Of a stretch of 64,000 nucleotides of DNA, positions 5,409 through 24,565 are shown piece by piece; positions within the stretch are counted from its first letter, which is position 1; the number at the start of each line of letters is the position of its first letter. This stretch comes from Candidatus Woesearchaeota archaeon. GTDB lineage: Archaea; Nanobdellota; Nanobdellia; Woesearchaeales; JBDRGA01. The translations under genes were made by a program, and so were the position numbers. The DNA lies in assembly GCA_043818175.1 (NCBI GenBank), contig JBDRGA010000016.1:14003-78002 (forward strand), given 5' to 3'. The notes below the pieces were generated by a model. It ran no database searches, was not told where the DNA came from, and saw nothing but the letters and a program-made list of their open reading frames with translations.

Positions 5409-5923
5409 TCTGCGTCACCCACTGTTATTTTGTAATGTTTCTTGAAGTAATCAATTGCATTTTCTCTTGTTATCTGGTGTTTCCTGCTGATTCTTGTTTT
5501 CTTAATCTTGCGTCTCTTGATTCTGAAGCCTGGCCTTTCCAAAGTTACGGAGACCTGGAGTCCCAAAATTCCAAGCTTGGGATCGTACTTCACACCTGGA
5601 ATGTCTATGTACTCTTTAATTCCGAAGCTTACATTTCCGAAATCATCAAAGCAAGGAGTGTCAAGGATGTTCTCTCTTGCCTGAACTAGGCGAGTCAGCA
5701 TTTCGTGCGCTGGTGGGCCTCTAAGCGTAATCTTGCATCCGATGGGCAGTCCAGGTCTAAGGCCCCATGCGGCCAACCTTTTTTGGGTTACTGTCTTGAT
5801 AGGTGGAATGCCAGTTATGAGTTTAAGTAATTCTACTCCCTTGTTAAGAAGGGCCTGGTCCTTACCCGCACCGAAGTTAAGGGTGACCTTCGCTATCCTT
5901 ATTTCACGCATATTGTTTTCCAT
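5405..5923 (-). CDS. rpl5: 50S ribosomal protein uL5
   Basis: 172 aa; L5 motifs (NFGAGKDQ..., [16 protein letters not shown]). Confidence 0.9.
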
Positions 5924-5925
5924 CT

Positions 5926-6618
5926 TTATTCGAGCTTGACGCTCGTCTTACCTGCCTTACCCACTACATGGGCAAAGGAAGTCGCTGTTTCGTATTCGTC
6001 GTTGCCGTGTTTGAACCGTATCATTTCTTCTTCTATCTTGACAATTGTGCCTATCCGGCCCGCGTACCTTCCAGCAGTCAGCAGAATCGCTGCGTTCTGT
6101 TCGAAAGGAAGCACCTCTTGCACTTTCTGGTCTGGAACTGTAATTAGCATCGTGTCACCAACTTTGACAGTTTCTTTGCCAAGCAAAAGAGTTCTGCCAT
6201 CTGATAAGCCCACTTGAATCTTTTTACCTCTGAGCATCACTTTTGATTTTACTCTAAGAGGCTTCAGGTTTGCTTCCTTTGTTGATATTTCCAATAAGTC
6301 AAGCTTCGCCCTTGCATTGAGTATTAACCTATACTGTTTGTTCAGAGCGGGGAAGCTCAGTACATCCATGAGTCCTACTTGTGCCTTTTCATCATACATC
6401 GGCTTTCCATCCTTGTGAACTTGCTTGTTGTGAAGCATGAACTTGACTTCCTTAGTTGTCCTGGCAAGCCCCAGAACTTCCTTAAGTGCTGTATTAACAC
6501 TCATGGCCGTGTCAAAGGAGTGTCCTCCTGGAAGTGGCCTCGATATGAATTTTGATATCTTTCTTCGTACGTCCCACGTCCTGGGGGTGCTTATTCTTTT
6601 GAGGTGTGATTTTACCAT
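5926..6618 (-). CDS. rps4e: 30S ribosomal protein eS4
   Basis: 230 aa; S4e N-terminus (HLKRISTPRTWDVRRK) and KOW-like region; archaea/eukaryote-specific. Confidence 0.9.
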   Translation of the reverse strand: MVKSHLKRISTPRTWDVRRKISKFISRPLPGGHSFDTAMSVNTALKEVLGLARTTKEVKFMLHNKQVHKDGKPMYDEKAQVGLMDVLSFPALNKQYRLILNARAKLDLLEISTKEANLKPLRVKSKVMLRGKKIQVGLSDGRTLLLGKETVKVGDTMLITVPDQKVQEVLPFEQNAAILLTAGRYAGRIGTIVKIEEEMIRFKHGNDEYETATSFAHVVGKAGKTSVKLE

Positions 6619-6620
6619 GA

Positions 6621-7013
6621 TTATGCCTCTCTGGCGAGCTTCGCCTTCCTCTTCTTGTCGTCAAGGTTCAATTCTGTAATCATCATGTTGCTTGGATGGA
6701 TTCCCACTTGCACCTTTGAGCCGTCTCTCTTTGTCTGCTGTGCCTTGCCGAGGAACACTCGGGTCTCCTTTATGTCTACTCGCTCGACCTTCGCTTCTAT
6801 TCCTTTGAATGCACCACGAAGCACTTTCACCTTGTCACCTGTGCGAACCCTTATGTTTCGCATCTTATGCTTCTCACGGAGGAGTTTGCTAAGGTGGACT
6901 GACAGAAGATGCCCTTTAGTGTGGAGTGGCGCGTTGGCTGTGTACTTGCGCTGCTTCCTAGGTTGACTGCTTGCCTTCCATGCCGTGCTGAATTTTGCTT
7001 TCATCTCATACAA
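6621..7013 (-). CDS. rpl24: 50S ribosomal protein uL24
   Basis: 130 aa; KOW motif (RTGDKVKVLRGAFKGIEAKV). Confidence 0.88.
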   Translation of the reverse strand: MYEMKAKFSTAWKASSQPRKQRKYTANAPLHTKGHLLSVHLSKLLREKHKMRNIRVRTGDKVKVLRGAFKGIEAKVERVDIKETRVFLGKAQQTKRDGSKVQVGIHPSNMMITELNLDDKKRKAKLAREA

Positions 7014-7407
7014 TCGTACTCGCGACCTTTGCTATTGCAGGCCAGCGTGAGCACGCCTCCTTTGCTATTGGACCCTTGAAAATGGTCCCTTTGGGATTGC
7101 CCTTGTCATCCTTTAGGACAACAACAGCATTATCTTCGAATTTGATTCTGGTACCGTCTGCGCGCCTATACTCCTTCCTCTGGCGTACGATGATTGCGTG
7201 CACAACCTGCTTACGCATGTCCGGTCTGCCTTTCTTTACTGCCACCATCACCAGGTCGCCTACTCCTCCTGCGGGAATTCTTCCCTTTCTCGTATTATGA
7301 CCAACCACGCTAAATACCTTGACGACTTTCGCGCCAGAGTTATCACAGACATCAACCTGCGCCCCAACAGGTATTCCTCTTGTTACGCTCGCGCTTATGG
7401 CCTTCAT
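7006..7407 (-). CDS. rpl14: 50S ribosomal protein uL14
   Basis: 133 aa; L14 signature (VCDNSGAKVVKV..., GDLVMVAVKKGRPDMRK). Confidence 0.9.
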   Translation of the reverse strand: MKAISASVTRGIPVGAQVDVCDNSGAKVVKVFSVVGHNTRKGRIPAGGVGDLVMVAVKKGRPDMRKQVVHAIIVRQRKEYRRADGTRIKFEDNAVVVLKDDKGNPKGTIFKGPIAKEACSRWPAIAKVASTIV

Positions 7408-7685
7408 ACCTTTTCCACCTTGTTCACTATTTCTGTAACGATAAAGTGTTTTGTCTTGCTTATTGGTCTAGTTTCACATACTATGACCTTATCTCCTACT
7501 TTCGCATTGATTGACTCGGGATTGTGTGCTTTGATTCTGCTTCTGCGTTTCTCGAAACGTTCGAACTTGCTGATGTATTTGCGTCGCTCCCATTCTACTG
7601 TTACTGTGCGCGCCATCCTGTCTGCTATTACAGTACCTACTAGGGTCTTCCCGCGAGGGATTATGTTTTTCTTGGTTGGTGTCAT
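7404..7685 (-). CDS. rps17: 30S ribosomal protein uS17
   Basis: 93 aa; OB-fold S17 (GKTLVGTVIADRMARTVTVEWERRKYISKFERF). Confidence 0.88.
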   Translation of the reverse strand: MTPTKKNIIPRGKTLVGTVIADRMARTVTVEWERRKYISKFERFEKRRSRIKAHNPESINAKVGDKVIVCETRPISKTKHFIVTEIVNKVEKV

Positions 7686-7963
7686 ATTCTCTTGATCCTT
7701 TCTTCCGGACGATGCCGGATGTCATCACCCATTACTGTCGAAGTTCCTATGCGAAACACACCTCCCTTCTTCGGGAAGTGAATTTCACCCTCTTCAGTCC
7801 TGACGATGAACGTCTCCTTTGTTTCGTCGATGACTATGCCTTTGCTGCCCGCCAACTTTTGTGTTGGCGAGTCAATAACCTCAATCTGCAACCCAATGAA
7901 TGGGCGCTTGAGGTCACCTGACTTCGATTGTTTCCGGGGCGAATCCCAGTTTGACGAGCTCAT
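7682..7963 (-). CDS. rnp1: RNase P protein component 1 (Rpp29/Pop4 homolog)
   Basis: 93 aa; IGLQIEVIDSPTQKLAGSKGIVIDETKETFIVRT...HFPKKGGVF matches archaeal Rpp29 Sm-like barrels. It sits in the conserved position between L29/SUI1 and S17. Confidence 0.75.
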   Translation of the reverse strand: MSSSNWDSPRKQSKSGDLKRPFIGLQIEVIDSPTQKLAGSKGIVIDETKETFIVRTEEGEIHFPKKGGVFRIGTSTVMGDDIRHRPEERIKRI

Positions 7964-8222
7964 CTTTTATTTTGTTCCTGTGGTCTCCTTGTAATTCGAT
8001 GATTCCGCCCTTTGACGTTCCACCACATGCAAAGGTACCTTTCAGCTTCTTGGCGACATCCTTGATGTCGACTTCGTGCTTATTGATACCTTCAACAATC
8101 GTGTACGGCTTGCCAAACTTACGCTTGACGAGCTTTGCCTTGATTGTCTGGCCCTCTTTTGCGATTTGATCCCACGCGCCAAGGACCTTGGGCAAGCCTG
8201 TGATTGGGTCGATTTCCGTCAT
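7914..8222 (-). CDS. sui1: Translation initiation factor SUI1 (aIF1/eIF1 family)
   Basis: 102 aa; KAKLVKRKFGKPYTIVEGINKHEVDIKDVAKKLKGTFACGGT...IELQGDHRNKI is the SUI1 fold signature. Its 3' end overlaps the Rpp29 ORF by ~50 nt. Confidence 0.85.
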   Translation of the reverse strand: MTEIDPITGLPKVLGAWDQIAKEGQTIKAKLVKRKFGKPYTIVEGINKHEVDIKDVAKKLKGTFACGGTSKGGIIELQGDHRNKIKDELVKLGFAPETIEVR

Positions 8223-8425
8223 GCTTGTTCGCCCGTCACCTCCTTGTTTTTCTGTGCTGTTCTTATCTGCGCTATTGTGCGCTTGATTAACTTAATCTGG
8301 TTTGGATTCTTTGGAGGAGTTCCTGTGCTGGACTGTGCCTGTAGTTTCATCAAATCCATCTTCAGTTCCTGCTCTTTCTTGACGAGCGCTTCATCATTCA
8401 TCCTCGAAATATCCTGGAACTTCAT
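8219..8425 (-). CDS. rpl29: 50S ribosomal protein uL29
   Basis: 68 aa helical protein, L29-like (ALVKKEQELKMDLMKLQAQ); between S3 and SUI1. Confidence 0.82.
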   Translation of the reverse strand: MKFQDISRMNDEALVKKEQELKMDLMKLQAQSSTGTPPKNPNQIKLIKRTIAQIRTAQKNKEVTGEQA

Positions 8426-9216
8426 GAGCCCTCCGTGGCGTCTTCATTTTTCACGGATTTCTTTGTTGATTTCTTAGCGGCCTTCTTTGCTGATTTTTTT
8501 GCTTCTTTCTTTTCTGGTTTTTCTTTGACAGCGACTTCTGGTGCTTCCGTTGAACCGCTGTCTTCAGCTACTAATGCAGCTACTTTCTGAACTGGTTCCT
8601 CCAGCTCTGCTATGACCGCTTCAACGTTAACATGTATTCTGTCTGGAAGTATTGTGCCTGGAGGCATTATACTTACTTTAACGCCAACGGTTCCTGCCTT
8701 GAGTTTTGCTGTGGCGTATGCTCTGTTGACTCCTGTAAGAGCAACGTCTCCTGCCTTCTTGAGGTATCCCTTGGCAAATCTCCAGGACTTTGCTCTTGCA
8801 CCTGGAATCTTTCCTTTTATTATGATTTCAACACCTTGCGCTCCCGCATTCATGACTTCTGAAAGGTACTTGTGACCAACACCTTTGAACCTGTTCGTGC
8901 CAAAGCGTTCAAGACTCGATGCGATGAGTTCTGCAATTATGTTTGCGTCCAAACCCACGTTCTGAACTTCCTCTATCTCTATCTGTGGGTTTTCCAGCTT
9001 GAATTCTTCTTTTAGTTGTCTTGTCAGCCTGCTTATGTTGCTTCCTGCCCTTCCAACAACCAGACCAGGCCTGCTTGCCGAGATTACTATCTTCTCACCC
9101 AAGGGCGTTTTCTGGAGCTTGACTGTGCTCAGCCCTACCCTGCCCAAACTGGCTTTCACGAATTCTGTAATTCTAAACTCATTCAAGTTGTCCTGTATGA
9201 ATTTGCGCTCGATCAT
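8422..9216 (-). CDS. rps3: 30S ribosomal protein uS3 with a Lys-rich C-terminal tail
   Basis: 264 aa; KH domain and S3 C-terminal domain, ending in a KKEAKKSAKKAAKKSTKKSVK tail. Confidence 0.9.
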   Translation of the reverse strand: MIERKFIQDNLNEFRITEFVKASLGRVGLSTVKLQKTPLGEKIVISASRPGLVVGRAGSNISRLTRQLKEEFKLENPQIEIEEVQNVGLDANIIAELIASSLERFGTNRFKGVGHKYLSEVMNAGAQGVEIIIKGKIPGARAKSWRFAKGYLKKAGDVALTGVNRAYATAKLKAGTVGVKVSIMPPGTILPDRIHVNVEAVIAELEEPVQKVAALVAEDSGSTEAPEVAVKEKPEKKEAKKSAKKAAKKSTKKSVKNEDATEGS

Positions 9217-9719
9217 TTCTTGGTCTCCGTCTGCACTTTTTGTTCAATTGATTTCTTTGGTGCTTCTTTCTTTTCCTTCTTGGGCTTGGCTTCACCCAAC
9301 GCAATCTCAATATGTGTTCTCTTTGAAATCCTTCTTGAATGTCTACCGAACTTCATGCTCCTGGTGCCGTGTTGAGCTCTGGCATGAATTATGACTAGGT
9401 TTTTTCCAAGCCCCTTAACTTGGGCGTTTGCTTCCGCGCTTGACAAGATCTTCAGTATTGCTGTTGCCGCTTTAACTGGATATCTTCCCATTCCAATGCC
9501 TGGCTTGTGAGATGCGCCCTCACTGAATCGATTGTACCTTATTGGTGCGTCCTGTGTCATCGCGCCTTCCAACATCTTCTTTGCACGGGCAACTGGTTTC
9601 TTCCTTATGGCATCACATATCTCGATACTATCTTTCGTGCTTATTCCCATATCTACACCCAGCGCTTTGGCAAGGGGTACGTCGGGTTTCTCGTTCAAGC
9701 TGTATCCATATTTTGCCAT
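9213..9719 (-). CDS. rpl22: 50S ribosomal protein uL22
   Basis: 168 aa; L22 fold (AKYGYSLNEKPD..., KNLVIIHARAQHG) with a Lys-rich C-terminus. Confidence 0.88.
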   Translation of the reverse strand: MAKYGYSLNEKPDVPLAKALGVDMGISTKDSIEICDAIRKKPVARAKKMLEGAMTQDAPIRYNRFSEGASHKPGIGMGRYPVKAATAILKILSSAEANAQVKGLGKNLVIIHARAQHGTRSMKFGRHSRRISKRTHIEIALGEAKPKKEKKEAPKKSIEQKVQTETKK

Positions 9720-9721
9720 TA

Positions 9722-10102
9722 TTACCTCACGCTGAGTGCGGCGCTGCTCTTGGTTGCGCCCACTCCTGGTGCGTTATGTCTAACATGACTTCTCGTCAAG
9801 ACGAGTTCTCCAAAGTACAAGCCGAGCATGTCTTCAGTAATTGTAACGGGAACGAATATCTTGCCATTGTGAATGCTGACTGTCTTGCCAACCATGGACG
9901 GGAATACCAACATATCCCTGCGATGGGTTTTCGCTGAACCTTTCTGCTCTATTTTTGCCAGGAGCTTCTTGTGTTCAGCGGATAGGCCTCTTGCAATCTT
10001 CCTGCGTTGCCTTGAAGGATATAATTCTGCCAACTCTTTCATTGAGAGTGCCTGCAGCTCCTCGAGCGTCTTTCCTCTGTACGTGAATATTTTCTTTGCC
10101 AT
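9722..10102 (-). CDS. rps19: 30S ribosomal protein uS19
   Basis: 126 aa; S19 signature (GKTVSIHNGKIFVPVTITEDMLGLYFGEL). Confidence 0.9.
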   Translation of the reverse strand: MAKKIFTYRGKTLEELQALSMKELAELYPSRQRRKIARGLSAEHKKLLAKIEQKGSAKTHRRDMLVFPSMVGKTVSIHNGKIFVPVTITEDMLGLYFGELVLTRSHVRHNAPGVGATKSSAALSVR

Positions 10103-10104
10103 GG

Positions 10105-10806
10105 TTACTTCTTCCTTCCTGTTCTTCTAGGTCTAATCATACCAACATTGCGTCCTGGTGGTGCGTTCTTTGGCGCAGGTCTTGCCTTGCTCTTACGTGA
10201 GCTTCTCTTGTTACCCATTGGGTGAGCAACTGCATTCATCGCGCCTCCCGAAACGATTGGCCAGTACGTGTGCCTTGCTTTCATTCTGTGGAACTTGAAT
10301 CCTGCTTTGAGAAATGGTTTCTCTGTTCTGCCGCCTCCTGCCGCATCTCCAATCATTGCTTTGCAGTCTGGATTGAATGATTTCTGTTTCTTGCTCGGAA
10401 GCTTTACTACAACCTTGTCAGGACCTCGCAATACAATAGTCGCGGACATTCCCGATGCACGAACCAATTTTCCTCCGTCTCCCGGACTGACCTCGATGTT
10501 AAAAATAGAAGTGCCTTCCGGAATTTCCTTCAATGGAATGGAATTTCCTATCTTTAGAGGTGCGCCGCTGCCCACCTCAAATGTCTGACCTACTGTGGTG
10601 CCTGTAGTTGCGAGCACTGTTCCTATTGTTTTATCATCGTAAACTACTACTGCCAAAGGCGCTGTATGCGATGTTGACCTGATGAATCCATTTATTGTGT
10701 ATGACTTTGCTGATTTCAGGAATACCTTCTGCTTGGATGTAGACCTGGGTCTCTTGAACACACTTGAGCCCTTGCCTCTCCTTTGCTGAATAAGGTTCTT
10801 TCCCAT
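10105..10806 (-). CDS. rpl2: 50S ribosomal protein uL2
   Basis: 233 aa; L2 signature (GAMNAVAHPMGNKRSSRKSK, GGGRTEKP). Confidence 0.9.
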   Translation of the reverse strand: MGKNLIQQRRGKGSSVFKRPRSTSKQKVFLKSAKSYTINGFIRSTSHTAPLAVVVYDDKTIGTVLATTGTTVGQTFEVGSGAPLKIGNSIPLKEIPEGTSIFNIEVSPGDGGKLVRASGMSATIVLRGPDKVVVKLPSKKQKSFNPDCKAMIGDAAGGGRTEKPFLKAGFKFHRMKARHTYWPIVSGGAMNAVAHPMGNKRSSRKSKARPAPKNAPPGRNVGMIRPRRTGRKK

Positions 10807-10808
10807 TG

Positions 10809-11054
10809 TTACATCATCCCCAGCCTGCTCGCGATATCAATGGCTGGTGTTTCTGGACTGAATTTGACTATTGCCTTCTTCTGGCCCTTCCTGTCTATGA
10901 GTGTGTTTACTGAAATCACTTTGGCATCAAACATTTCTTCGACAACCTTTCTGATCTCTGGTTTCTTCGCTTTAAGGTCAACTACGAAAACTATCTTGTT
11001 CTCTGCTTCCATCAATCTTATTGCCTTTTCCGTGCTCACTGGATGCTTGATCAT
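10809..11054 (-). CDS. rpl23: 50S ribosomal protein uL23
   Basis: 81 aa; L23 fold (KIVFVVDLKAKKPEIRKVVEEMFDAKV). Confidence 0.85.
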   Translation of the reverse strand: MIKHPVSTEKAIRLMEAENKIVFVVDLKAKKPEIRKVVEEMFDAKVISVNTLIDRKGQKKAIVKFSPETPAIDIASRLGMM

Positions 11055-11992
11055 TTGCTAACCTTCTTCGTGGGTTTCTTAACTGCTTTCTTAACTGTTT
11101 TCTTAACTGGTGCTTTCTTCGTTCTTGATGCTGCTTTCCTCTTGGGTTCTGCAATCTTCTCTGTCCTTTGCTTTGCAGGCGGCACATTTAGGAATAGACC
11201 TTCCTCAATCAGCCTCTTGATTGCTGTTTCGGTGAATAATGTTATTCTTCCATGGTGTGTTCCTGGTGCGAGGAGTTCCGCATTCAAAGCATGCACGGCA
11301 ACACAGTCAACTCCTGGAATGTTATTCAATGCCTTCATGACTGGAGCTTCCTGTGCCGTTACAATCAGGATACTCTTGCCTATCTTATGCTGTCTTCCTC
11401 TTGTTCTAGCGCGTCCTGTTCTTCTCGTTGGCTTTTCGGTTCTTGCAAGCTCATCTGCAAACCCCAGGGCATCCAGCGTTTTCCACGCTTCTGCGGTCTT
11501 CTGAATGTTTTCAAATCCAGATTCGATTATGAATGGATATTCCTTTGGGGGTATGTGTCCCCTTGCTTTAACAACTTCAGGAATCAAAGTGGCACTCATT
11601 GCGCTTCTTATGGCAAGACGGTTCTCCTTCTTGTTGACTTTCTTATCCCAAATCTTTTCTGCCTTGGGAGGATGTGCTCTCCTTCCACCGACTGTTCCGG
11701 GAGCGAGGGCTCCAACCCAATTCATTCTTGTTCCTCTCCTTGACATGATTTTTCTAGGAACACGACTTATACCTATGCCGTACGCCCCTCTATAGTCTCT
11801 TCTTCTTCTTGAGAGCTTTGCGCTGACCTGTTGGCCCGCTTCCTTAAACGAACCATATGGTTGTCGTGCTCCTGCCTGAAGAGCCAAAACTGCTTTCTTG
11901 ATTATGTCCTCTCTGAGCGGCTCGCTGAACTGTATGGGCATCTCCTGTTGCCCTTTTGACGTGTTCTGCATTGACCGTATTGTGAGTTTCAT
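11051..11992 (-). CDS. rpl4: 50S ribosomal protein uL4 with a Lys-rich C-terminal tail
   Basis: 313 aa; archaeal L4/L1e core followed by a KKAPVKKTVKKAVKKPTKKVSK tail. Confidence 0.88.
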   Translation of the reverse strand: MKLTIRSMQNTSKGQQEMPIQFSEPLREDIIKKAVLALQAGARQPYGSFKEAGQQVSAKLSRRRRDYRGAYGIGISRVPRKIMSRRGTRMNWVGALAPGTVGGRRAHPPKAEKIWDKKVNKKENRLAIRSAMSATLIPEVVKARGHIPPKEYPFIIESGFENIQKTAEAWKTLDALGFADELARTEKPTRRTGRARTRGRQHKIGKSILIVTAQEAPVMKALNNIPGVDCVAVHALNAELLAPGTHHGRITLFTETAIKRLIEEGLFLNVPPAKQRTEKIAEPKRKAASRTKKAPVKKTVKKAVKKPTKKVSK

Positions 11993-12936
11993 CCTTGCTT
12001 GCTCCTCGTGCTTATTGAGTCAATGGTGTATTGTTCTGGTGCTTCAGTTGGTCTAAGGGCTTGCGCCATTATTACCATGCGTTTCTTTGGTCCTGGTATT
12101 GAGCCCTTGATGAGAACATAGGGGTTCTTTACCACACCATATCTTATGAAACCGCCCTTGGGCGTTACTTCTTCGCCTTTTGTACCAATTTTGAGAATGA
12201 GGTTGTTGTATTGTGTTCTTTGATGGTAACCCATCTGGCCTGCATGCGCTACCCTGTACATCATGTGGGCCTGGCCATACCAAGCACCCAAGCTTCCGGG
12301 CCCTCTCTTGGTTTTCTCGCTCTTGTGGTGTCTGATGCTTACTCCAAATCTTTTTACCGGACCTTGGAATCCCCTTCCTGTTGTTATTGCATGGAAGTCA
12401 ACAAGTGAACTTTCCTTAAGAGCATCCTGAACTGTTATTTCCTGATGCTCCTGGGCGTACTTAATCTTCTCTTCCATGCTTCCACCCATCGGAATTTCGA
12501 AGAGCTCCGGCTTCTTCTTGATGCCAGCAAGAGCAGGTTGAGTATGAATTATTAGAACAACATCCTCGTATTCAGCAGCATTAACCTTTGAAAGGTCTCC
12601 TTTCTGCTTAAGATTTACTTTTCTTAGAACGTCTTTGGATGGTTTGAAATGAATGTCGAGAGAAGGAATGGAATTTTTGTAGAAACGGACGCCCGCGACC
12701 TTGAGCGGCGGACATTCAATGACCGTCACAGGGATTGCGAGCGTTTCGCCCTTCATTGGACTATTTTTTCTTCCATCGGTTGCCATGACATGGGTCATGC
12801 CTGCCTTATAGCCAGGAAAACCAGCAGGGCCTGGATTCTTTGTGTTCCATGTTCTGACGCGAGCATAGCTTCTCCTGGCACGTACTCGAGGCCATACTTG
12901 CATGCTTCCGTGTCTTGGTTGTGCTGGTTTCGGCAT
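11989..12936 (-). CDS. rpl3: 50S ribosomal protein uL3 (first gene of the r-protein operon)
   Basis: 315 aa; archaeal L3 N-terminus (PRHGSMQVWPRVRARR...) and conserved core. Confidence 0.9.
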   Translation of the reverse strand: MPKPAQPRHGSMQVWPRVRARRSYARVRTWNTKNPGPAGFPGYKAGMTHVMATDGRKNSPMKGETLAIPVTVIECPPLKVAGVRFYKNSIPSLDIHFKPSKDVLRKVNLKQKGDLSKVNAAEYEDVVLIIHTQPALAGIKKKPELFEIPMGGSMEEKIKYAQEHQEITVQDALKESSLVDFHAITTGRGFQGPVKRFGVSIRHHKSEKTKRGPGSLGAWYGQAHMMYRVAHAGQMGYHQRTQYNNLILKIGTKGEEVTPKGGFIRYGVVKNPYVLIKGSIPGPKKRMVIMAQALRPTEAPEQYTIDSISTRSKQG

Positions 12937-13064: not shown

Positions 13065-13215
13065 GATTTGGGAATGGGTGTGGGTGACCGCACGAGTAAT
13101 AGAAAAGGGTAGGTAGCCCCGCTCGGACACTGAGGGTGGTTTGGTCTGAAGAGGACTCTATGTTGTTTTGCGCTATTATCCCTTATTTAAATTAGTTTGT
13201 ATTCTAACACAAACG

Positions 13216-13225
13216 TTTATAAATA
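13216..13225 (+). promoter_or_regulatory. TATA box (TTTATAAATA) for the downstream ATPase gene; leaderless-type spacing
   Basis: A canonical archaeal TATA lies ~22-30 bp upstream of the ATG at 13246. Purines precede it, consistent with a BRE. Confidence 0.45.
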
Positions 13226-13245
13226 GTAATGGCTTCTGCTCATTC

Positions 13246-14367
13246 ATGAGGGAAGAAATCGAAGCAGTAGCTCAAACAAAGTTTGCGAATGTGGGTGTGT
13301 TCCGTAAGAAGTACATCTCGAAGATTGAGGTGTGGTTGGAGAGACCTGAAATTATCATAGTCAAGGGGGTGCGTCGCGCAGGCAAGTCTACTATTCTAAG
13401 GCAGGTTGCTTCTAAGTTGGAAGGAAAGGCTGTTTATGTGAATTTTGATGATTATCGCTTGTTGCCTCATCTAGGATTGGAACTTCTTGAAACGGTAGTC
13501 GAGAAATTTCCCAATGCACAATATTATTTCTTTGATGAGATTCAGAAGGTTCCTGGTTTTGAAAGTTGGCTGCGAACATATTATGACATTAAAGTTCACA
13601 AGAAGTTCATTATCAGTGGTTCAAATATTTCGCTGCTTTCTCCAAAGCTTGGTACTGTTCTTACAGGTAGGAACATTACTTTTGAGATATTTCCTTTGGA
13701 TTATGCCGAGTTTCAAGCATTTGGCAAAGGATCGTTTGATGATTATCTTGAGTTTGGAGGGTTCCCAGAAGTTGTTCTCGAATCCGATGAAGGAAAGAAG
13801 AGACAGTTGTTGAGTCAGTACTTCAACGATATTCTGCTTAGAGATATCTTAGAAAAACAAGGTATTGCACCCACGCAACAATTCAAGGCGGTTGCACAAT
13901 ATGTAATATCTAATACGGGGTTGAAGGTTAGTGCTAACAAGCTCGCCAAGGAGTTGGGGGTAAACAGCAGGACGGCCGAGGCCTACTTGTCTCACATGGT
14001 GGATGCCTACTTGATTTTTGAAGTGCCTTTCTTTTCTTATTCCACGAAAACAAAGTATGTTGCAGGAAGGTCTTCAAAATACTATGCTATTGATAACGGT
14101 CTTACTACGGCGCTTTCTTCGAAGAAGAACAGAGGACATTTGTTCGAGGCGCTTGTTGCCCAGGCTTTGCGGAGGAAAGGACCTGATTTGTATCATTGGA
14201 TTGGAAAGAAGGAAGTGGACTTTATACAAAAGAACATAGCTTACCAGGTTTCTTTTGCAAAAGTCGAAGAAGACACGTTTGTTGAGCTAAAAAAGGAATT
14301 CAAGCACATAGAAACAACCAAGACAATTACCCCCGGAAACTTTGAAGAAGAATTAAAAGAACATTAG
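13246..14367 (+). CDS. AAA-type ATPase of the archaeal COG1373 / DUF4143-containing family
   Basis: Walker A GVRRAGKST and Walker B-like YYFFDEIQ motifs, followed by a C-terminal DUF4143-like region. The track ORF starts at 13168; I used the ATG at 13246, which has a TATA box upstream. Confidence 0.7.
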   Translation: MREEIEAVAQTKFANVGVFRKKYISKIEVWLERPEIIIVKGVRRAGKSTILRQVASKLEGKAVYVNFDDYRLLPHLGLELLETVVEKFPNAQYYFFDEIQKVPGFESWLRTYYDIKVHKKFIISGSNISLLSPKLGTVLTGRNITFEIFPLDYAEFQAFGKGSFDDYLEFGGFPEVVLESDEGKKRQLLSQYFNDILLRDILEKQGIAPTQQFKAVAQYVISNTGLKVSANKLAKELGVNSRTAEAYLSHMVDAYLIFEVPFFSYSTKTKYVAGRSSKYYAIDNGLTTALSSKKNRGHLFEALVAQALRRKGPDLYHWIGKKEVDFIQKNIAYQVSFAKVEEDTFVELKKEFKHIETTKTITPGNFEEELKEH

Positions 14368-14446: not shown

Positions 14447-15301
14447 CTACACAGGCTCACAATAGAACGCTTCGAACGTTTTGAAGCTCGCGCCCCTGTC
14501 GTCCATCGCGGTCATCGTGAACCTGTATGCTATTGTGTTCTCCCGCTCAGGCAGGTAGTTCCACGCGTAGAAAGTGTGCGTTCCCCTTGTGCAGTTTATC
14601 GCAAGAAGGTTCCTGCAGGTTGGCACGTCCTGGCAGGTTATGCTCTTCCAATCTGCCCAAGTAGCATAATCAAGAATCTTAAGTTTGGCGTCTTCTTTCC
14701 TGGAATTTACCAGACTAAGATAATAGTCGGGCATCTCATAAACGTTGCTTCTCAGATTGTTCACAGTATACTCAATACTGCCATCGAAGTATTGATTACG
14801 TAAGAGCCAGAACGGGTCTTCGATTGGGTTGTTTGGATTTCCTTCACGCCAGTAATATCCAACTTTTCCTTGGGTGTATAGTACCTTGCGATATGTTACT
14901 CCTCTGAACGCGGGATTAACCACAGCCATTGCCTGCACAATTTCTGTTTGGGTCCATCCTGTTATGTCAACATAAATCGGGTCTTCTGTTGGTATTGGCT
15001 CCTCTGGTGGTTTTTCTGCTGGCCTTGAAGGAACGTCTGGCATTGTTGTTGTATTATTGTCTGTGCTGTTCCTTCTCTGCGGGCAATCTGCCAATTTGAG
15101 AACCTTCGTTCCATCAGGACAAACATACTCAGTGGGAGGAACTACTTCTGCAGTAGTATTATTCGGGGTGAACATGGCAAAAACTCTGCCTTTGAATACG
15201 ACGAATAGAACAACGAGGATTAACACACCTAGAAATGTAAATAGAACTTTCTTATTGAGTATCGGCTTGAGAAGAACCTTTAGGATTGCGCCCAGTATCA
15301 T
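14447..15301 (-). CDS. Hypothetical membrane-anchored/secreted protein (N-terminal TM, Cys- and Trp/Tyr-rich ectodomain)
   Basis: 284 aa; N-terminal hydrophobic helix followed by a Pro/Thr-rich linker; I recognise no domain. Confidence 0.45.
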   Translation of the reverse strand: MILGAILKVLLKPILNKKVLFTFLGVLILVVLFVVFKGRVFAMFTPNNTTAEVVPPTEYVCPDGTKVLKLADCPQRRNSTDNNTTTMPDVPSRPAEKPPEEPIPTEDPIYVDITGWTQTEIVQAMAVVNPAFRGVTYRKVLYTQGKVGYYWREGNPNNPIEDPFWLLRNQYFDGSIEYTVNNLRSNVYEMPDYYLSLVNSRKEDAKLKILDYATWADWKSITCQDVPTCRNLLAINCTRGTHTFYAWNYLPERENTIAYRFTMTAMDDRGASFKTFEAFYCEPV

Positions 15302-16637
15302 GCTTCTTAACCTTGATTGGTGCTTTTAAAGGTTTCTGGGTGTTCAGGTATCTCGCTCTTCTTTTTGCGTACTGCAGTGGGTTCTTCACTCCTTTATGTC
15401 CTGGAGCGTCCTTACAATGTTGCATCGCGCCATAATACAATTGGTTGTCGCAGTTTGGAGGTAGTACTTTCTCCTTCCTTGCAAGATGATACCTTAGGTG
15501 GCCTGTAAGAATAGTTTCTCGCAATGGTTCTGGATTGCGCTTGTTCCATGCTCTTAATTCCTCTTCAATTCTATCGTTGGGCCAATTACAACATTTGAGG
15601 AAATTTATCAGAACGAACAGTGCTCTTTTCTTACCATCTTCCATTCCTTCCAGCATCGTCTTTATGCAGTCGGGAAAGCAGTGTACTGGAATCATTTCTG
15701 TAAAGTCCTCGTGAAAGACCTGTTTTGTCTCGAACTCTTCTTTTGGAAGTTCGGGCGCGAAATCATATGATTGCATTACGAGCAAAGATGCTTCTCCTTT
15801 CGTAACGTTCCTTGATAAGAAATCCGCATTGAATTTTACTTTGTCTGGTTCGGCCATTGCACGTTCGAACTTTAATACGTCTTCTGGATTTATCGGGACT
15901 GAAATCAGCTCGGACTTCTCGTGAAAGCTGTAAGGCATTCTGTAAAGATGTCTGCTCGATAGAAGAATTGTGTCTATGTCGAGGAAGGCTTCTGCATTAA
16001 GCTTGGGAACTTTTCTGCCATTTGAGTCAACGTATCTCGTTATTGCTTGGGCACTCATGTTGACGCGTTCCTTAACGGCATCGAAGCTTTCCCCTTCCAA
16101 TTTGAGAATTGCGTCGCTCACCGGCTCCTTTATCATGTGTTTTATGTACGTCGCGATTCTCTTGGGCGCTTCAGGAAACGATTCATTTGTGGGTTGACCA
16201 TTGATTGTTTCGGGAAACGATTCAAAAGGAACGCCTATGTGAAAACCTTTATTGCCGGAGAACTTGCAACTTATTCCTTTGATGCCATGGTGCTTTAGTG
16301 CTTCAATTGTGTAATGCGCAGCTATTCTTGAGTACTCAAAAAGATGACAATCAATATCCAGAACTAAATCCCAGCCTGCACGTAGTTCATCCAATTGAGA
16401 ACGGGACATCCCTGGAGTAATCTGCATTGGGTTAGTCCATATCTCTTCGCTGGCGTGAAAGCTTGTTGCTTTGTTCTTTGCGTGCTCAAGAACATCGTTT
16501 GGGTACATTAATACGTCCGGCCTCTTTCCAAAACTGTCTCCAAAACGAACACCAACCTCTTTACTCCTGGCTTGCACAACCATCGCCTGCTGTACTTCCG
16601 GCTTCTTGTACCATGAAAGGGTTTTTGCTATGAACAT
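15252..16637 (-). CDS. priS: Single-chain DNA primase: PriS catalytic domain fused to a PriL-CTD-like Fe-S domain
   Basis: PriS catalytic motifs are LVLDIDCHL (DxD), KFSGNKGFHIGVPF and YRMPYSFHEKSELISVPI. The C-terminal ~170 aa carries FPDCIKTMLEGMEDGKKRALFVLINFL..W, which matches the PPCMxxL...RxxxxLFL motif of the PriL C-terminal domain, and has multiple Cys. Confidence 0.7.
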   Translation of the reverse strand: MFIAKTLSWYKKPEVQQAMVVQARSKEVGVRFGDSFGKRPDVLMYPNDVLEHAKNKATSFHASEEIWTNPMQITPGMSRSQLDELRAGWDLVLDIDCHLFEYSRIAAHYTIEALKHHGIKGISCKFSGNKGFHIGVPFESFPETINGQPTNESFPEAPKRIATYIKHMIKEPVSDAILKLEGESFDAVKERVNMSAQAITRYVDSNGRKVPKLNAEAFLDIDTILLSSRHLYRMPYSFHEKSELISVPINPEDVLKFERAMAEPDKVKFNADFLSRNVTKGEASLLVMQSYDFAPELPKEEFETKQVFHEDFTEMIPVHCFPDCIKTMLEGMEDGKKRALFVLINFLKCCNWPNDRIEEELRAWNKRNPEPLRETILTGHLRYHLARKEKVLPPNCDNQLYYGAMQHCKDAPGHKGVKNPLQYAKRRARYLNTQKPLKAPIKVKKHDTGRNPKGSSQADTQ

Positions 16638-16712: not shown

Positions 16713-17075
16713 ATGGAACGCGCACCCGTGACGGACCTCACCCTTGCTCTTCTTAGTCAAGGATACAACTGGTACCTTCCTGAAGGCACGCAAGGTCAAC
16801 CCGCAATACTATCGAAATCCACAAATAAACGTGGAGTGTACCTCATGATGAGCCCAAATGATGGCACGTCAATCATGCAAATCGGATTTTGGGATGCTGA
16901 ACCAAAAACAGATGTTATTCAATTTGGTAATATGCTTCTTGTGCACGTACCTGTGCACGGCACGGACGGGACGTACAGCGGATTGGCGGCGGCAGTTGCC
17001 GAAGCGGATACCATTTGCACTGACAAATCAGACGCCGATGCTCTGACAACAGCCCTGCGTGCATTCAAAATATAA
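16713..17075 (+). CDS. Hypothetical small protein
   Basis: 120-aa ORF in an otherwise empty intergenic slot; no recognisable motifs. Confidence 0.3.
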   Translation: MERAPVTDLTLALLSQGYNWYLPEGTQGQPAILSKSTNKRGVYLMMSPNDGTSIMQIGFWDAEPKTDVIQFGNMLLVHVPVHGTDGTYSGLAAAVAEADTICTDKSDADALTTALRAFKI

Positions 17076-19059: not shown

Positions 19060-21246
19060 TCAGTCAGAATACTCTGTATCAAGCACTTCGCGAATCCTTG
19101 CTGCTTTCTTTTCACCTATTAAGTCAACTTTCTGCAATTTTTCTTCAGATGCGGAAAGTAACTTCTTGGGCGTTTTGAACTTCTTGAGTAATGGTTTTGC
19201 AAGGGCAGGTCCAATACCAGGGAGTGAAGATATAAGATATTCCTGCTGTTCCTTCAGCGTTAATGGCTTTGCAGAATGCATTGTGAACTCCTTCTTCTTG
19301 TCTTCCTGAAATCGCTTTGCAATAACCCCAAATAATGCGGCAGTCTCTGCAGGACCAGAAGTTCTTAGCACAGGAATCTGAAAACTCAAAGCTAAAGTTG
19401 CAAGCATGCCCTGAATTGCAGAAGGATGCATATTCCTCTGCGCATACATATCTTCATCACCCTCAATGAGTATCAGTGGTTTCTGGTAAGCACGCAATCC
19501 TTTTGCCTGTGTAAGAAGCCGTCCATCAACAATACTATCAACAAAATCACGCACAGTCTTGAACTCAACACAAACATCCTCAGATAAAAGGTAATCTCCT
19601 ACTTCGAGTTGGGAGAGGTTAATAGTAAAGCCCTGTTCCGACAGGAGTTTTACTGTCTTTGATGCTTTCTCCCTGTGATCAACATAAATAGTCAATTTGT
19701 TGTCTGAGTAGTCCATAAGACTCCTTGTGCTCTTTTGGGGTGAGAAAGTTCTTTTCATCTCTTTCAATTCGCGATACATTCTAATCTCTTTATGGTGTGC
19801 GCTCCACCTGTGCGCTTCATCTCTTGTTCCCTTTGTTACTAGAACAACAACACGCCCTTTCTCCTGTCTCCCCGTTCTTCCTCTGCGTTGCACTGTTCTT
19901 ATTGCTGAAGGTACAGGTTCGTAGAATATCACCATATCCACTGCTGGAATGTCCAACCCTTCTTCTGCTACAGAAGTGGCCACTAAAACATTAAAACCTC
20001 CTTCCCTGAACGATTGCAATGTTGCCTGTTGTTTTTTCTGCGACATACCCGTATCTGCTTTCATCTGTTGGCCTACAAATATCTTGCAAGGTATCTTCTC
20101 TGTTTCGAGAGCGCGCACAAGCACAGATGCCTGGTCTCTGTATTGATTAAACAATATTATCTTAACCTCTTTATTGATGACATATTCATTCCTGATAAGC
20201 CGCACGGCTTCGCCGAGTTTCGGATGCTCAACTCCTTCCTCGAGAAGACGCGACGCCAAAAGGTGTGCCGCCTTAACATCTAGATGCTGCATCAGGTTCT
20301 TCACTGCTTTCACATTGGTGCTTCTAGACTGTTCGGAAAGTTTGTCAAGGTAGGCAACAACCGAAGCCACACCTTGTGTTTCCGCTAATTCTATGGCGTG
20401 CTGAACTTTCGTTGCCTGCGCAATAAGAGATAATGCTTTCATGGCAGTAAAATCTCTGTCGCGAGATACTGACGCACCAAGCGCGCGTTGAAGATGAAGC
20501 AAGTCCACTTTGTTCATCTGTGAACTATTATTTGGGGCGTGGCCCGTGGCAGCAAGCTGAGTCATTGCGTCGTCGTATGCTTTTTTCAAGTAATCTCTCA
20601 GCGCCAAAATCTTTGGGTGTGGTGTTAAGGTAACCCAATCCACGTTGATTTCCTGCACGTACTGTTTTACGTCGGGGTCTTCTTCTGTTCTTACTTCTAT
20701 ATCTTCAATATGAAGATTCTGCATTACTTCTTGAATGTCTTCTTTCCTGCTTCCCGGGCTTGCAGTTAGTGCGAGAAGTCTGGCGTGTGATGCTGACGCA
20801 AAATACCTCTTTGCAATAAAGACATAACCATAATCACCCACTGCTCTGTGCGCTTCATCCACTACGAGAAGCGAGACTGAGTCGAGTTTTATCCGTTTCG
20901 TGAGTATGTCGTTTTCAAGTCCTTGTGGTGTTGATATTACAACGCGCGCATCCTTCCACAATTCCTCTCGTGTTTCTGGTTTTACGTGGCCTGTGAACAA
21001 AACTATACGTTCCTCTGGAATGTCAAGATGATTTCGAAAACTGGCGGCGTGCTGCTCACATAAAGGTCTTGTGGGAGCCAACACCAACACTTTCGATCCA
21101 GAATAATGCTCTAGGCGGTGTGCGGCAAGCATCACGGCCACCATCGTTTTTCCCAGCCCCGTGGGCAAAACAACTAAAGTGTCGTGCTTTACTGCAGTGG
21201 CTAGAATTGTCTGCTGATATAGCCTTGGCTCGAACCCTTTAATCAT
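19060..21246 (-). CDS. hef: Hef: helicase-associated endonuclease for fork-structured DNA (SF2 helicase + ERCC4/XPF nuclease + HhH2)
   Basis: LPTGLGKT Walker A, VVDEAH DEAH box, a helicase C domain, an ERCC4 nuclease motif (IYVDHREKAS...) and C-terminal helix-hairpin-helix repeats. At ~728 aa from the internal Met (MIKGFEPRLYQQ), the size matches Pyrococcus Hef. Confidence 0.8.
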   Translation of the reverse strand: MIKGFEPRLYQQTILATAVKHDTLVVLPTGLGKTMVAVMLAAHRLEHYSGSKVLVLAPTRPLCEQHAASFRNHLDIPEERIVLFTGHVKPETREELWKDARVVISTPQGLENDILTKRIKLDSVSLLVVDEAHRAVGDYGYVFIAKRYFASASHARLLALTASPGSRKEDIQEVMQNLHIEDIEVRTEEDPDVKQYVQEINVDWVTLTPHPKILALRDYLKKAYDDAMTQLAATGHAPNNSSQMNKVDLLHLQRALGASVSRDRDFTAMKALSLIAQATKVQHAIELAETQGVASVVAYLDKLSEQSRSTNVKAVKNLMQHLDVKAAHLLASRLLEEGVEHPKLGEAVRLIRNEYVINKEVKIILFNQYRDQASVLVRALETEKIPCKIFVGQQMKADTGMSQKKQQATLQSFREGGFNVLVATSVAEEGLDIPAVDMVIFYEPVPSAIRTVQRRGRTGRQEKGRVVVLVTKGTRDEAHRWSAHHKEIRMYRELKEMKRTFSPQKSTRSLMDYSDNKLTIYVDHREKASKTVKLLSEQGFTINLSQLEVGDYLLSEDVCVEFKTVRDFVDSIVDGRLLTQAKGLRAYQKPLILIEGDEDMYAQRNMHPSAIQGMLATLALSFQIPVLRTSGPAETAALFGVIAKRFQEDKKKEFTMHSAKPLTLKEQQEYLISSLPGIGPALAKPLLKKFKTPKKLLSASEEKLQKVDLIGEKKAARIREVLDTEYSD

Positions 21247-21307
21247 AATGAAACAGAAAAGGAAGAATCGTTTAATTGCTTTTCCTCCGAAAAAAAGAGG
21301 AAAAAAT

Positions 21308-21562
21308 TTATCGCTTCTTGACAGTGCGTTTCCTGCCACGCGCCATCTTTGCGCGGCTGATGTCGCCCTGACTGTCTACGAAGTACAGGTATCCTGACTC
21401 CTTCTTGACGCCTGCCTTGGCTACCTTCTCGCGTTTGGCTTTTCCTTTCTTCTTGCCACCACCGCGGGCCATCTGTGCGCGGGAGATGTCTCCCTGCTTG
21501 TCGACGAAGTACAGGTAACCGTACTGTTTCTTAACTCCTACTTTTGCAACCTTTTGTGCCAT
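21308..21562 (-). CDS. Small basic protein built from two tandem ~36-aa repeats (VAKxGVKKxxGYLYFVDxQGDISRAxMARG)
   Basis: Directly visible internal duplication; Lys/Arg-rich with no Cys; possibly nucleic-acid binding. Function unknown. Confidence 0.45.
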   Translation of the reverse strand: MAQKVAKVGVKKQYGYLYFVDKQGDISRAQMARGGGKKKGKAKREKVAKAGVKKESGYLYFVDSQGDISRAKMARGRKRTVKKR

Positions 21563-21683: not shown

Positions 21684-21959
21684 ATGGCAGACTTGTTTGT
21701 CTCGGCTCTTGGCATTATGGACGTGCTATCCGGGCTTGGTGCAGTGCTCATAGGCCTTGATATTTTTGGATTGAGGGCGGGCGTGGGAATTGCCATGTAT
21801 CTAGTGCTTAAGGCAATAGTATTCAGATTCGAGATTCTTTCCACTATTGACGCGCTTGCTGGCCTTGTGGTGCTTATTGGCTCTCTGCTCCCTTTAGGAA
21901 TAGTTTTCTGGGTTGGAGCAGGTTACCTCATCGGAAAGGGTGCTTATTCTCTCCTTTAA
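21684..21959 (+). CDS. Small membrane protein (about 3 TM helices)
   Basis: 91-aa hydrophobic ORF. A TATTTATAT element lies ~25 bp upstream of the ATG. Confidence 0.45.
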   Translation: MADLFVSALGIMDVLSGLGAVLIGLDIFGLRAGVGIAMYLVLKAIVFRFEILSTIDALAGLVVLIGSLLPLGIVFWVGAGYLIGKGAYSLL

Positions 21960-22693
21960 GACTTCTCAAATGCTCTTGTGTATAACCAGGTGGCAAGAGC
22001 GGCCAGAACTACGGCCAGAATTACACCCCCAACACCACCTATGAGTGCGAGAAAACCATAGAAGAACACGAACGTGAAAACAAACGCCCAACCCATTCTT
22101 GAAGTCTTGAACAAATCAAGCCCTTGGTTCCACGGAAGGGGCAGAAGCATACCCACACCCAACCACCACGAGAGAAGTAGCAGGTCTCTCGCCAGTTCGG
22201 CACCAGATGCATAATATATTAGTTTGAAGAGTAAAACTCCAAGCACGGATACTAACGCGCCACCCGCAACTATTTTGGCAAGGTCTCCGTGGTTCCTCCA
22301 GTATCTAAACTGCCCGAGGCGCAGCCGTTCATGATGGTGCGCGTAGAACGTGCCAATGAATAGCCAGGGCGTTATTATTGTAGGAACAAGAGGTTCGAGC
22401 ATGTACGCAAGATACAAACCAATCCCTAGCAAGATTATGCTCATTCTGAATTCAAGACGATAACCCATGGAAAGTGCGAGAACCTTCTGAAATCCCAAGA
22501 TTGCGTACAGAAGAATAAGAACAACAATAAGATATAATATGAACACACTTATCCAAGTTATCAACGAATATTCTCTCTCAAAAAATCTAGGTATTGAGAA
22601 TGTTATCGCAAGTACAATTGCAGTAACAACATAATTTCTGAATTCCTCATCAGACCAAGAATAGTGTGCCCTTGCCCTTGCGAAGATTCCCAC
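21956..22693 (-). CDS. Polytopic membrane protein, unknown function (downstream partner of TraB)
   Basis: 245 aa with 6-7 predicted TM segments, directly downstream of the TraB-family gene on the same strand. Confidence 0.5.
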   Translation of the reverse strand: MGIFARARAHYSWSDEEFRNYVVTAIVLAITFSIPRFFEREYSLITWISVFILYLIVVLILLYAILGFQKVLALSMGYRLEFRMSIILLGIGLYLAYMLEPLVPTIITPWLFIGTFYAHHHERLRLGQFRYWRNHGDLAKIVAGGALVSVLGVLLFKLIYYASGAELARDLLLLSWWLGVGMLLPLPWNQGLDLFKTSRMGWAFVFTFVFFYGFLALIGGVGGVILAVVLAALATWLYTRAFEKS

Positions 22694-24213: not shown

Positions 24214-24565
24214 CTGTTAATGGGAATGTTTGTTGTATATATAAGCGTTTCGACATTTGACTATTGAGTAGTGATTACAAATTGTGGATGTTATGTGACC
24301 CTCCTGTTGCACTTGGAAACGCGAAAATCAAAATAAACGAACTTTTTCGAATGATGTTTATATATAATATATAATATATTTCAATATTGAAAAATAATAA
24401 TAAGAGTTCTCATTTCTGATATTAAACAAGAAAACAGTCGCAAGCCATATAAGAAAGTTCCATAGGAAATGAAGGGGTGTCTCTTCATCACTCGAAACCA
24501 ACAATTCCCTTACTTATATTCTCGTAGCGCAATCCTTAAATAGGGGTGTGTTTCGAGTGCAACGT
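24214..24565. other. Putative replication origin (oriC): ORB element, AT-rich unwinding region and inverted repeats upstream of orc1/cdc6
   Basis: A full ORB-like box GTTCCATAGGAAATGAAGGGGTG lies at ~24457-24479. A ~70-bp >85% AT stretch at 24355-24420 contains the palindrome TTTCAATATTGAAA. Inverted repeats GTTGCACTTGGAAAC (24306-24320) and GTTTCGAGTGCAAC (24550-24563) flank it. The layout matches the Pyrococcus cdc6-polD origin. Confidence 0.55.

Follow-up and report, generated by a model that had tools for sequence, protein, structure and literature searches.

A Woesearchaeota DNA primase of the monomeric PriS-PriL fusion family with a histidine at the fourth iron-sulfur ligand position

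A 64,000-nucleotide stretch of the genome of a Candidatus Woesearchaeota archaeon (contig JBDRGA010000016.1; the whole stretch is referred to here as the window) encodes a 461-residue protein that is very probably the chromosomal, replicative DNA primase of this member of DPANN cluster 2 and that is a member of the monomeric PriS-PriL fusion family, in which NEQ395 has been characterised. The start codon of the gene fits the N-terminus of the family consensus, as judged from a 72-sequence alignment, and its product is 100% identical to ABIA93_02500, a protein deposited as a "hypothetical protein" from a Candidatus Woesearchaeota metagenome-assembled genome on a 103 kb contig. The initial annotation of the window, made from the sequence alone, had proposed that a PriS catalytic core and a PriL C-terminal domain reside on one chain. 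Hidden Markov model (HMM) scans, family profiles and a confident AlphaFold2 model confirm this two-domain architecture.

The fusion itself is well documented. It was first noted in Nanoarchaeum equitans (Iyer 2005, according to its citation in PMC3914693). Raymann et al. 2014 (PMC3914693) reported it for Nanohaloarchaea and Parvarchaeota as well, and Dombrowski et al. 2020 (PMC7414124) recognised it as a synapomorphy uniting DPANN cluster 2 with Undinarchaeota, a view with which a 2026 preprint agrees (10.64898/2026.06.17.729505). Archaea of this assemblage are without separate priS and priL genes (PMC7414124; PMC3914693; preprint 10.64898/2026.06.17.729505). The nanoarchaeal or DPANN affinity put forward in the initial annotation is upheld by the identical Woesearchaeota protein and by the published synapomorphy (PMC7414124), and this protein together with the archaeal replication genes in the window places the host in DPANN cluster 2/Undinarchaeota. 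Two of its remarks held in part. A fused primase is indeed known from Nanoarchaeum, but the fusion is the norm in DPANN cluster 2, neither rare nor special to Nanoarchaeum, and it has been described as the usual replicative primase of most other DPANN archaea too. Similarly, the protein is a single chain, but the compact one-chain model primase that was envisaged has already been realised with NEQ395 (PMC10250227). Since the literature already covers the fusion together with its taxonomic meaning and biochemistry, the window primase is a routine, already described family member and the gene call opens no new question. Only two points are mildly new, a histidine at the fourth ligand position of the iron-sulfur cluster and an apparent recurrent loss of the cluster among relatives.

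HMM scans of the whole protein and of its halves assign the N-terminal half to PriS and the C-terminal half to PriL, as the initial annotation had anticipated. The Pfam family PF01896 (DNA_primase_S) matches amino acids 103-250 with E values of 1.2e-5 to 3.5e-5, and the NCBIfam PriS models match the N-terminal half as well. Many close relatives carry PF01896 as a precomputed assignment, and one of them, P0121, scores 38.3 bits. In the C-terminal half, PF04104 (PriL) matches amino acids 295-374 or 307-400 (E 0.006-0.02), and P0121 passes the gathering score of this family with 37.1 bits. NCBIfam PriL equivalog models match amino acids 299-428 (E 1.6e-5 to 5e-5) at 23-25 bits, where the cutoffs are 339 and 431; the match starts at about model position 218 and runs to the end, and it thus covers the C-terminal third of PriL. 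A single-sequence phmmer search of the PDB gave a marginal PriL match (E 0.35), and a family profile was therefore needed. The profile of the C-terminal domain alone matches P. abyssi PriL (9f26_B) with an E value of 3.2e-7, in an alignment that pairs FPPC...G and PPNC...C...C...KNP, the stretches that hold the cluster ligands. Both the PriL C-terminal fold and its ligand motifs (FPPC ... PPNC ... C ... C) are found in the family. At E values below about 1e-4, the families and structures matched were AEP (archaeo-eukaryotic primase)/PriS only for amino acids 1-295 and PriL only for amino acids 296-435. Judged from its sequence, the window protein holds a PriL C-terminal domain but is no PriL subunit, and a full-length PriL is not present in it.

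AlphaFold2, run with the family alignment, returned a model of two domains separated by a disordered hinge, with a mean predicted local distance difference test score (pLDDT) of 89.4 and 349 residues at or above 90. A short helix (amino acids 284-293) is followed by the disordered stretch that is predicted to act as linker, where pLDDT falls below 50 for amino acids 301-310 and is lowered over 291-320. Amino acids 140-215 form a long helix and a hairpin, and a further C-terminal helix spans amino acids 420-434. Modelled separately, amino acids 311-440 fold into six helices (pLDDT 90.3), in line with the helical C-terminal domain expected in the initial annotation.

A Foldseek search with the whole model retrieved Prim-PolC, LigD polymerase and the PriS subunits of P. 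abyssi, P. furiosus and human with E values from 1e-8 to 1e-5. The top match was M. smegmatis Prim-PolC (E 1.9e-8, TM score 0.53) and LigD polymerase domains came slightly ahead of PriS, as would befit a repair polymerase of non-homologous end joining (NHEJ), of the LigD polymerase or Prim-PolC type, and not a primase; the Pfam family LigD_Prim-Pol (PF21686) also gave a weak match (E 1.7e-4 to 3.9e-4). However, this match reaches 20.5-21.7 bits against a gathering threshold of 27.4 and is weaker than the PriS match, and the structural resemblance is explained by a minimal AEP core that lacks the additional subdomains of PriS. Searched against the whole PDB by sequence, the 72-sequence family profile matches no chains other than those of PriS and PriL (E up to 1). 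Moreover, the window protein has a fused PriL-type initiation domain with a basic patch, which NHEJ polymerases do not have, and no Ku or ligase was found among the neighbouring open reading frames (ORFs) scanned. We consider a repair polymerase extremely unlikely.

All three PriS motifs claimed in the initial annotation (DxD, SGxxGFH and PYSxHxK) are present, as LVLD94ID96C, FS127GNKGFH133 and RMP235YSFHEK241. In the 72-sequence family alignment, D94, D96, S127, G128, G131, F132, H133, D222, H230, R233 and K241 are invariant in the catalytic domain, as are P322, G335, K337, R338, W364 and N365 in the C-terminal part. The latter contains the stretch F321PDCIKTMLEGMEDGKKRALFVLINFL347, followed by W352 and W364; F341 is nearly invariant, and C324, F341, W352 and C396 are kept in at least 90% of the sequences. 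This degree of conservation indicates that the catalytic and PriL motifs are not chance matches. Aligned through the family profile to the PDB, the R229-K241 stretch corresponds to residues 313-343 of human PriS, INHLLKSPFSVHPKTG. Directly after the catalytic DxD, in LVLDIDC, lies Cys97 (16347-16349), which is invariant in 120/120 close relatives and has no counterpart among the residues mutated in NEQ395.

NEQ395 (AAR39242.1), a protein of 393 amino acids, is a monomeric RNA primase of high activity, specific for a template triplet, whose primers measure about 9 nucleotides (Schneider, Bergsch & Lipps 2023, PMC10250227). It is the one member of the family for which de novo synthesis of RNA primers by a monomer has been shown (PMC10250227). 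Its catalytic residues are D87/D89, H125 and D194, and NTP (nucleoside triphosphate) binding involves H58, S119, K122, H202 and R205; the H58A mutant and the D87/D89 double mutant are inactive (PMC10250227). In its PriL domain, R301, R303 and F306 serve initiation, and mutants at these positions lose priming and keep elongation (PMC10250227). Its [4Fe-4S] cluster is held by C289, C364, C376 and C384, and its linker is a protease-sensitive hinge whose length sets primer length (PMC10250227).

Using the published residue numbers and motif spacing, we built a residue map between NEQ395 and the window primase. The pairs are D87/D89 and D94/D96; S119/K122/H125 and S127/K130/H133, with the same internal spacing; D194/H202/R205 and D222/H230/R233, again with the same internal spacing; C289/R301/R303/F306 and C324/K336/R338/F341, at +12, +14 and +17 from the first ligand; and C364/C376 and C396/C408, 12 residues apart. 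On this mapping, every residue mutated in the NEQ395 study appears to have a counterpart in the window protein at matching spacing, with the exception of the spacing of the fourth ligand, where His414 stands at +6 and C384 at +8. The NEQ395 residue-number pattern matched none of the 269 proteins retrieved, and N. equitans was not among the best 80 genome loci.

In both proteins, one polypeptide unites an AEP domain at the N-terminus and, beyond a hinge, a C-terminal PriL domain of the iron-sulfur type, and the two have in common their clade of organisms and a cellular primase role. By comparison with NEQ395, the window primase is 68 residues longer (461 versus 393 amino acids); the residue offsets imply that about 20 of these lie between motifs II and III, and the C-terminus is longer by the helix at amino acids 420-434 and the basic tail. 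The linker is predicted to be largely disordered, whereas a 30-residue helix has been modelled for NEQ395. The source of the window is probably mesophilic, as its origin in a metagenome-assembled genome suggests.

By homology with NEQ395, the AEP domain would polymerise RNA by a two-metal mechanism in which D94, D96 and D222 bind the metals. H133 would act within the sxH active-site motif, its equivalent H125 being an active-site residue of NEQ395, and H61, S127, K130, H230 and R233 would hold the elongating NTP. The PriL-type helical domain, tethered by the flexible linker of about 17 residues, would supply the initiation site, with the K336/K337/R338 patch and F341 holding the initiating NTP and the 5'-triphosphate of the primer so that a dinucleotide can form. 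As the primer grows, it would pull the tethered C-terminal domain away and so limit its own length (roughly 9 nucleotides in NEQ395). The primer may then be passed to PolD, whose genes lie in the window too.

The C-terminal part of the window primase contains six cysteines, C320, C324, C349, C350, C396 and C408. The initial annotation had suggested that several of them could ligate a 4Fe-4S cluster; this stands for C324, C396 and C408, which occupy conserved ligand columns, and falls for C320, C349 and C350. These three were also considered as an alternative fourth ligand and rejected, as the corresponding positions hold cysteine in just 6, 12 and 43 of 120 relatives, respectively. C320 does not track the histidine substitution: it is present in only two of the His414-type relatives, P0001 and P0002. 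In place of the four cysteines of NEQ395, the window protein thus has three cysteines and His414. Cysteine occupies the fourth ligand column in 109 of 120 close relatives, and the CAT codon of His414 is two substitutions away from a cysteine codon.

The ligand set varies within the family, and His414 therefore does not exclude the window protein from it. Across 269 sampled sequences, 221 have four cysteines, 10 have three cysteines and a histidine at the fourth ligand position (P0002, P0018, P0034, P0056, P0073, P0092, P0098, P0148, P0208 and the window protein), and 27 have lost the first and second ligands together, with cysteine replaced by threonine, serine, alanine or proline at the first and by tyrosine or phenylalanine at the second. 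On a rough neighbour-joining tree, the histidine variants are scattered over at least three separate branches. In two further relatives, P0074 and P0115, a histidine is found at the third ligand position instead. The 27 ligand-less proteins (for example P0054, P0079, P0162, P0184, P0202 and P0220) keep the FPP, DGRKR, PPN and KNP motifs and, going by these sequences, apparently have cluster-free PriL-type domains reminiscent of PriX.

From this conservation pattern, the window primase's C-terminal domain most likely binds a [4Fe-4S] cluster through C324, C396, C408 and His414, in a Cys3-His arrangement. The broader proposal that His414 is a genuine cluster ligand, that the swap arose several times among Woesearchaeota-type primases and that roughly 10% of the family members sampled have given up the cluster entirely is one that we put forward tentatively, with somewhat less than even confidence. 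Alternatively, the window protein could be a primase with a cluster-free C-terminal domain, a helical bundle like PriX, in which His414 is no iron ligand and the three cysteines are relics. The absence of the fourth cysteine would agree with this, as would the relatives that manage without the first two ligands and still keep DGRKR and KNP; in addition, Cys-to-Ala mutants of NEQ395 lose the cluster and stay fully active (PMC10250227), and PriX is cited as a natural cluster-free homologue (PMC5700102). Nevertheless, C324, C396 and C408 are all kept, the replacement at the fourth position is specifically histidine, a known iron-sulfur ligand, and it recurs across branches. Furthermore, the true cluster-less relatives lose their cysteines together and have tyrosine or phenylalanine at the second ligand position, a pattern that is absent from the window protein. 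A cluster-free domain is the main alternative, one that we regard as less likely than ligation through His414, the reading that we prefer. As cluster-less NEQ395 mutants are active (PMC10250227), primer synthesis should not depend on the cluster either way. A narrow literature search by phrase found no description of a histidine-ligated PriL-type cluster, which is a weak indication of novelty.

Relatives of the window primase are numerous. A homologue search at E values up to 1e-3 matched 3275 proteins with the same architecture, and the best 120 were inspected. These 120 are 411-503 amino acids long, share 48-64% identity with the query over at least 86% (mostly 92-100%) of its length and reach E values down to 1e-196; many of them carry both PF01896 and PF04104. 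Where a source is named, it reads Woesearchaeota, Nanoarchaeota, Nanoarchaeia or plain archaeon, except for one "Bacteroidota bacterium" and one "Euryarchaeota archaeon". Among 1.84 billion representatives clustered at 50% identity, 397 match at E values up to 1e-30. Relatives are encoded in at least 579 GTDB species genomes. The best 80 of these carry mainly Woesearchaeota, Nanoarchaeota and Nanoarchaeia labels; as exceptions, some two dozen are named "uncultured Methanosarcinales", a single one is named Omnitrophica and a few are recorded just as "archaeon".

This breadth bears on whether the fusion could be an artefact of assembly or of a frameshift error that merged adjacent priS and priL genes. 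In favour of this stands the origin of the sequence in a metagenome-assembled genome. However, thousands of independent assemblies have the same uninterrupted architecture at similar lengths of 430-500 amino acids, the linker region keeps the frame and is aligned throughout the family, and the C-terminal part is the PriL C-terminal domain only and not a whole PriL. The probability of an artefact is next to negligible.

Some records in the family deserve separate mention. The labels "uncultured Methanosarcinales archaeon" (loci L011, L015-L018 and others), "Candidatus Omnitrophica bacterium" (locus L058) and "Bacteroidota bacterium" (protein P0062) on a DPANN-specific primase probably reflect mislabelled or contaminated bins. 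Four primases of 883-1019 amino acids (P0124, P0152, P0186 and P0260) contain LAGLIDADG-type inteins. The intein lies just before SGNKGFH in P0124 and P0152, slightly upstream in P0186 (at about profile position 92) and at a second, different site further along the protein in P0260. P0121 (640 amino acids) and P0161 (769 amino acids) have C-terminal extensions with an S-adenosylmethionine (SAM) methyltransferase or alpha/beta hydrolase domain, which could be real fusions or read-through in the gene calls.

The surroundings of the gene are those of an ordinary archaeal chromosome, rich in replication genes (Table 1). The order DP2-DP1-Cdc6 ... Hef-primase-L3 operon recurs in a relative whose primase is 53% identical, on a contig of 1.07 Mb (L001 1-21323). 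In that relative the primase directly abuts L3; in the window, an ORF of 284 amino acids and an AAA_14/DUF4143 ATPase (13168-14367, + strand) lie between the two. No second PriS-like or PriL-like ORF was found in the 64 kb window, so that the absence of a separate priL, a point on which the initial annotation turned, holds for this stretch.

The same surroundings speak to the possibility of a primase-polymerase of a mobile element (plasmid, virus or integrated element), an independent fusion of PriS and a helix bundle like PolpTN2, pRN1 ORF904 or RepB'. Mobile elements commonly carry such fusions (PMC3973330; PMC10250227), the AEP core is matched at amino acids 77-143 by a PHROG family of viral primases (E 5.7e-11) and the preprint 10.64898/2026.06.17.729505 derives the whole DPANN family from a mobile-element primase. 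Yet the gene sits between a ribosomal-protein operon and the genes for Hef, Orc1, PolD and MCM, in an order kept in a distant relative, and at least 579 species genomes contain relatives, a nearly universal distribution. A scan of the window detected no tRNA gene, and the neighbouring ORFs scanned are housekeeping genes, with no integrase or other element gene among them. Within the universal AEP core, the PHROG match extends over no more than about 65 residues, and an ancient mobile-element origin would leave the present function unchanged. A mobile-element primase is, in our view, very unlikely, and a chromosomal replicative primase is the identification that we retain.

Several points weigh against this identification. 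The Pfam matches of the window protein itself fall short of the gathering cutoffs, just under for PF01896 (24.7-26.2 against 26.8 bits) and further below for PF04104 (14.6-16.3 against 22.4 bits). When the C-terminal domain alone was submitted to Foldseek, no significant match was obtained (all E values above 1). The fourth ligand is not a cysteine, and cluster binding is therefore less certain than in NEQ395. The NEQ395 map is an inference from published numbers and spacing. The putative status of the window protein as the sole primase rests on the scan of the 64 kb window and on the literature for cluster 2. Finally, the mechanism is inferred by homology, and what is established for the window protein itself is its sequence, fold and context.

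Compared with the canonical two-subunit enzymes (P. abyssi 9f26/9f28 and human PRIM1/PRIM2), the window primase shares the catalytic motifs and the AEP fold, and in the C-terminal domain the PriL fold, with its FPPC...PPNC...C ligand motifs, as well as the basic patch for initiation. It differs in being one polypeptide and not two, with an identity of about 13-16%, and in having no PriL N-terminal domain, the part that binds PriS. Its PriS part is apparently reduced to a minimal AEP core (Foldseek TM scores of about 0.4-0.5 to PriS). PriX of Sulfolobales (5of3_C, 4wyh) is a separate subunit without an iron-sulfur cluster, whereas the window protein keeps three ligand cysteines and a histidine; PriX is closer to the roughly 10% of relatives that are cluster-less. 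PolpTN2 (Thermococcus nautilus pTN2) and pRN1/RepB' resemble the window primase in uniting an AEP and a helical initiation domain on one chain, with the same operating logic, but they are extrachromosomal replication proteins of independent origin. Primases of the PolpTN2/pRN1 type are reported to have no detectable sequence similarity to those of nanosized archaea (PMC3914693).

Further observations concern the remainder of the window, in which an Rfam scan returned nothing relevant. The last 50 nucleotides of the primase gene (15252-15301), which encode part of the basic tail, overlap the predicted start of a downstream ORF on the same strand (14447-15301, 284 amino acids); the product of this ORF has no Pfam match and a hydrophobic N-terminal stretch that is a possible membrane anchor. 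The intein of the MCM helicase contains a LAGLIDADG homing-endonuclease domain and is inserted inside the P-loop domain. PyrB and PyrI, the catalytic and regulatory chains of aspartate carbamoyltransferase, are encoded as one 490-residue fusion (46812-48284, - strand), another subunit fusion in the same small genome. The product of a large ORF (57247-61740, + strand, 1497 amino acids) has no Pfam match at E values up to 1e-3. ORFs 52940-54190 (416 amino acids), 51570-52652 (360 amino acids), 21956-22693 (245 amino acids) and 16713-17075 (120 amino acids) are likewise without a Pfam match.

Table 1 Features of the primase gene and of its neighbourhood, in positions of the window
Feature	Position	Strand	Basis or remark
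Monomeric PriS-PriL (C-terminal domain) primase gene, complete	15252..16637	-	ATG-to-stop ORF, 461 aa; stop codon 15252-15254
PriS-type AEP catalytic domain, aa 1-295	15753..16637	-	PF01896 match; AlphaFold2 pLDDT mostly >90; Foldseek
His61 in SFHASEE, inferred equivalent of NEQ395 H58 (elongating-nucleotide binding)	16455..16457	-	Invariant; mapped by motif position only
Motif I, D94-I-D96, metal-binding DxD in LVLDIDC	16350..16358	-	Invariant; NEQ395 D87/D89
Motif II, S127-G-N-K130-G-F-H133 (SGxxGFH, sxH motif)	16239..16259	-	Invariant or near; spacing as NEQ395 S119/K122/H125
Motif III, acidic D222 in LDIDT	15972..15974	-	Invariant; D+8 = H230, D+11 = R233, as NEQ395 D194/H202/R205
R229-H230-L-Y-R233-M-P-Y-S-F-H-E-K241, nucleotide-binding H/R and PYSxHxK	15915..15953	-	R229, H230, R233, E240 and K241 invariant
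Flexible inter-domain linker, ~aa 296-312, ~17 residues	15702..15752	-	Low pLDDT; poorly conserved in family consensus
PriL C-terminal (Fe-S type) helical domain, aa 313-435	15333..15701	-	HMM/profile matches
Cys324 in FPDC, cluster ligand 1 (NEQ395 C289; PPC motif of PriL)	15666..15668	-	Cys in 118/120 relatives; aligns with FPPC of P. abyssi PriL
K336-K337-R338-A-L-F341, basic patch and aromatic, equivalent to NEQ395 R301/R303/F306 (initiating NTP/primer 5' end)	15615..15632	-	
Cys396 in PPNC, cluster ligand 2 (NEQ395 C364)	15450..15452	-	Cys in 118/120; aligns with PPNC of P. abyssi PriL
Cys408, cluster ligand 3 (NEQ395 C376)	15414..15416	-	Cys in 110/120; +12 from ligand 2 as in NEQ395
His414, position of cluster ligand 4 (NEQ395 C384), putative ligand	15396..15398	-	Codon CAT
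Lys/Arg-rich, poorly conserved C-terminal tail, aa 436-461	15255..15332	-	pLDDT <50 at aa 445-458; no family consensus
Ribosomal-protein operon	938-12936	-	L3 and L4 confirmed
Hef	19060-21339		
Orc1/Cdc6	24548-25771		
PolD DP1	25771-27204		
PolD DP2	27201-30704		
MCM helicase, 1211 aa	36660-40295	-	With intein

For the organism, the primase confirms that the contig originates from an archaeon of DPANN cluster 2, and the deposited "hypothetical protein" should be renamed as a DNA primase of the fused PriS/PriL type. For the family, histidine at the fourth ligand position and the coordinated loss of cysteines are modest observations that could offer natural variants for the question of why primases keep an iron-sulfur cluster. 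If our reading of the ligands is true, they would form a natural series of Cys4, Cys3His and cluster-free domains in a simple monomeric primase, and this series could be used to test the role of the primase cluster, be it as redox switch, in structure or in regulation.

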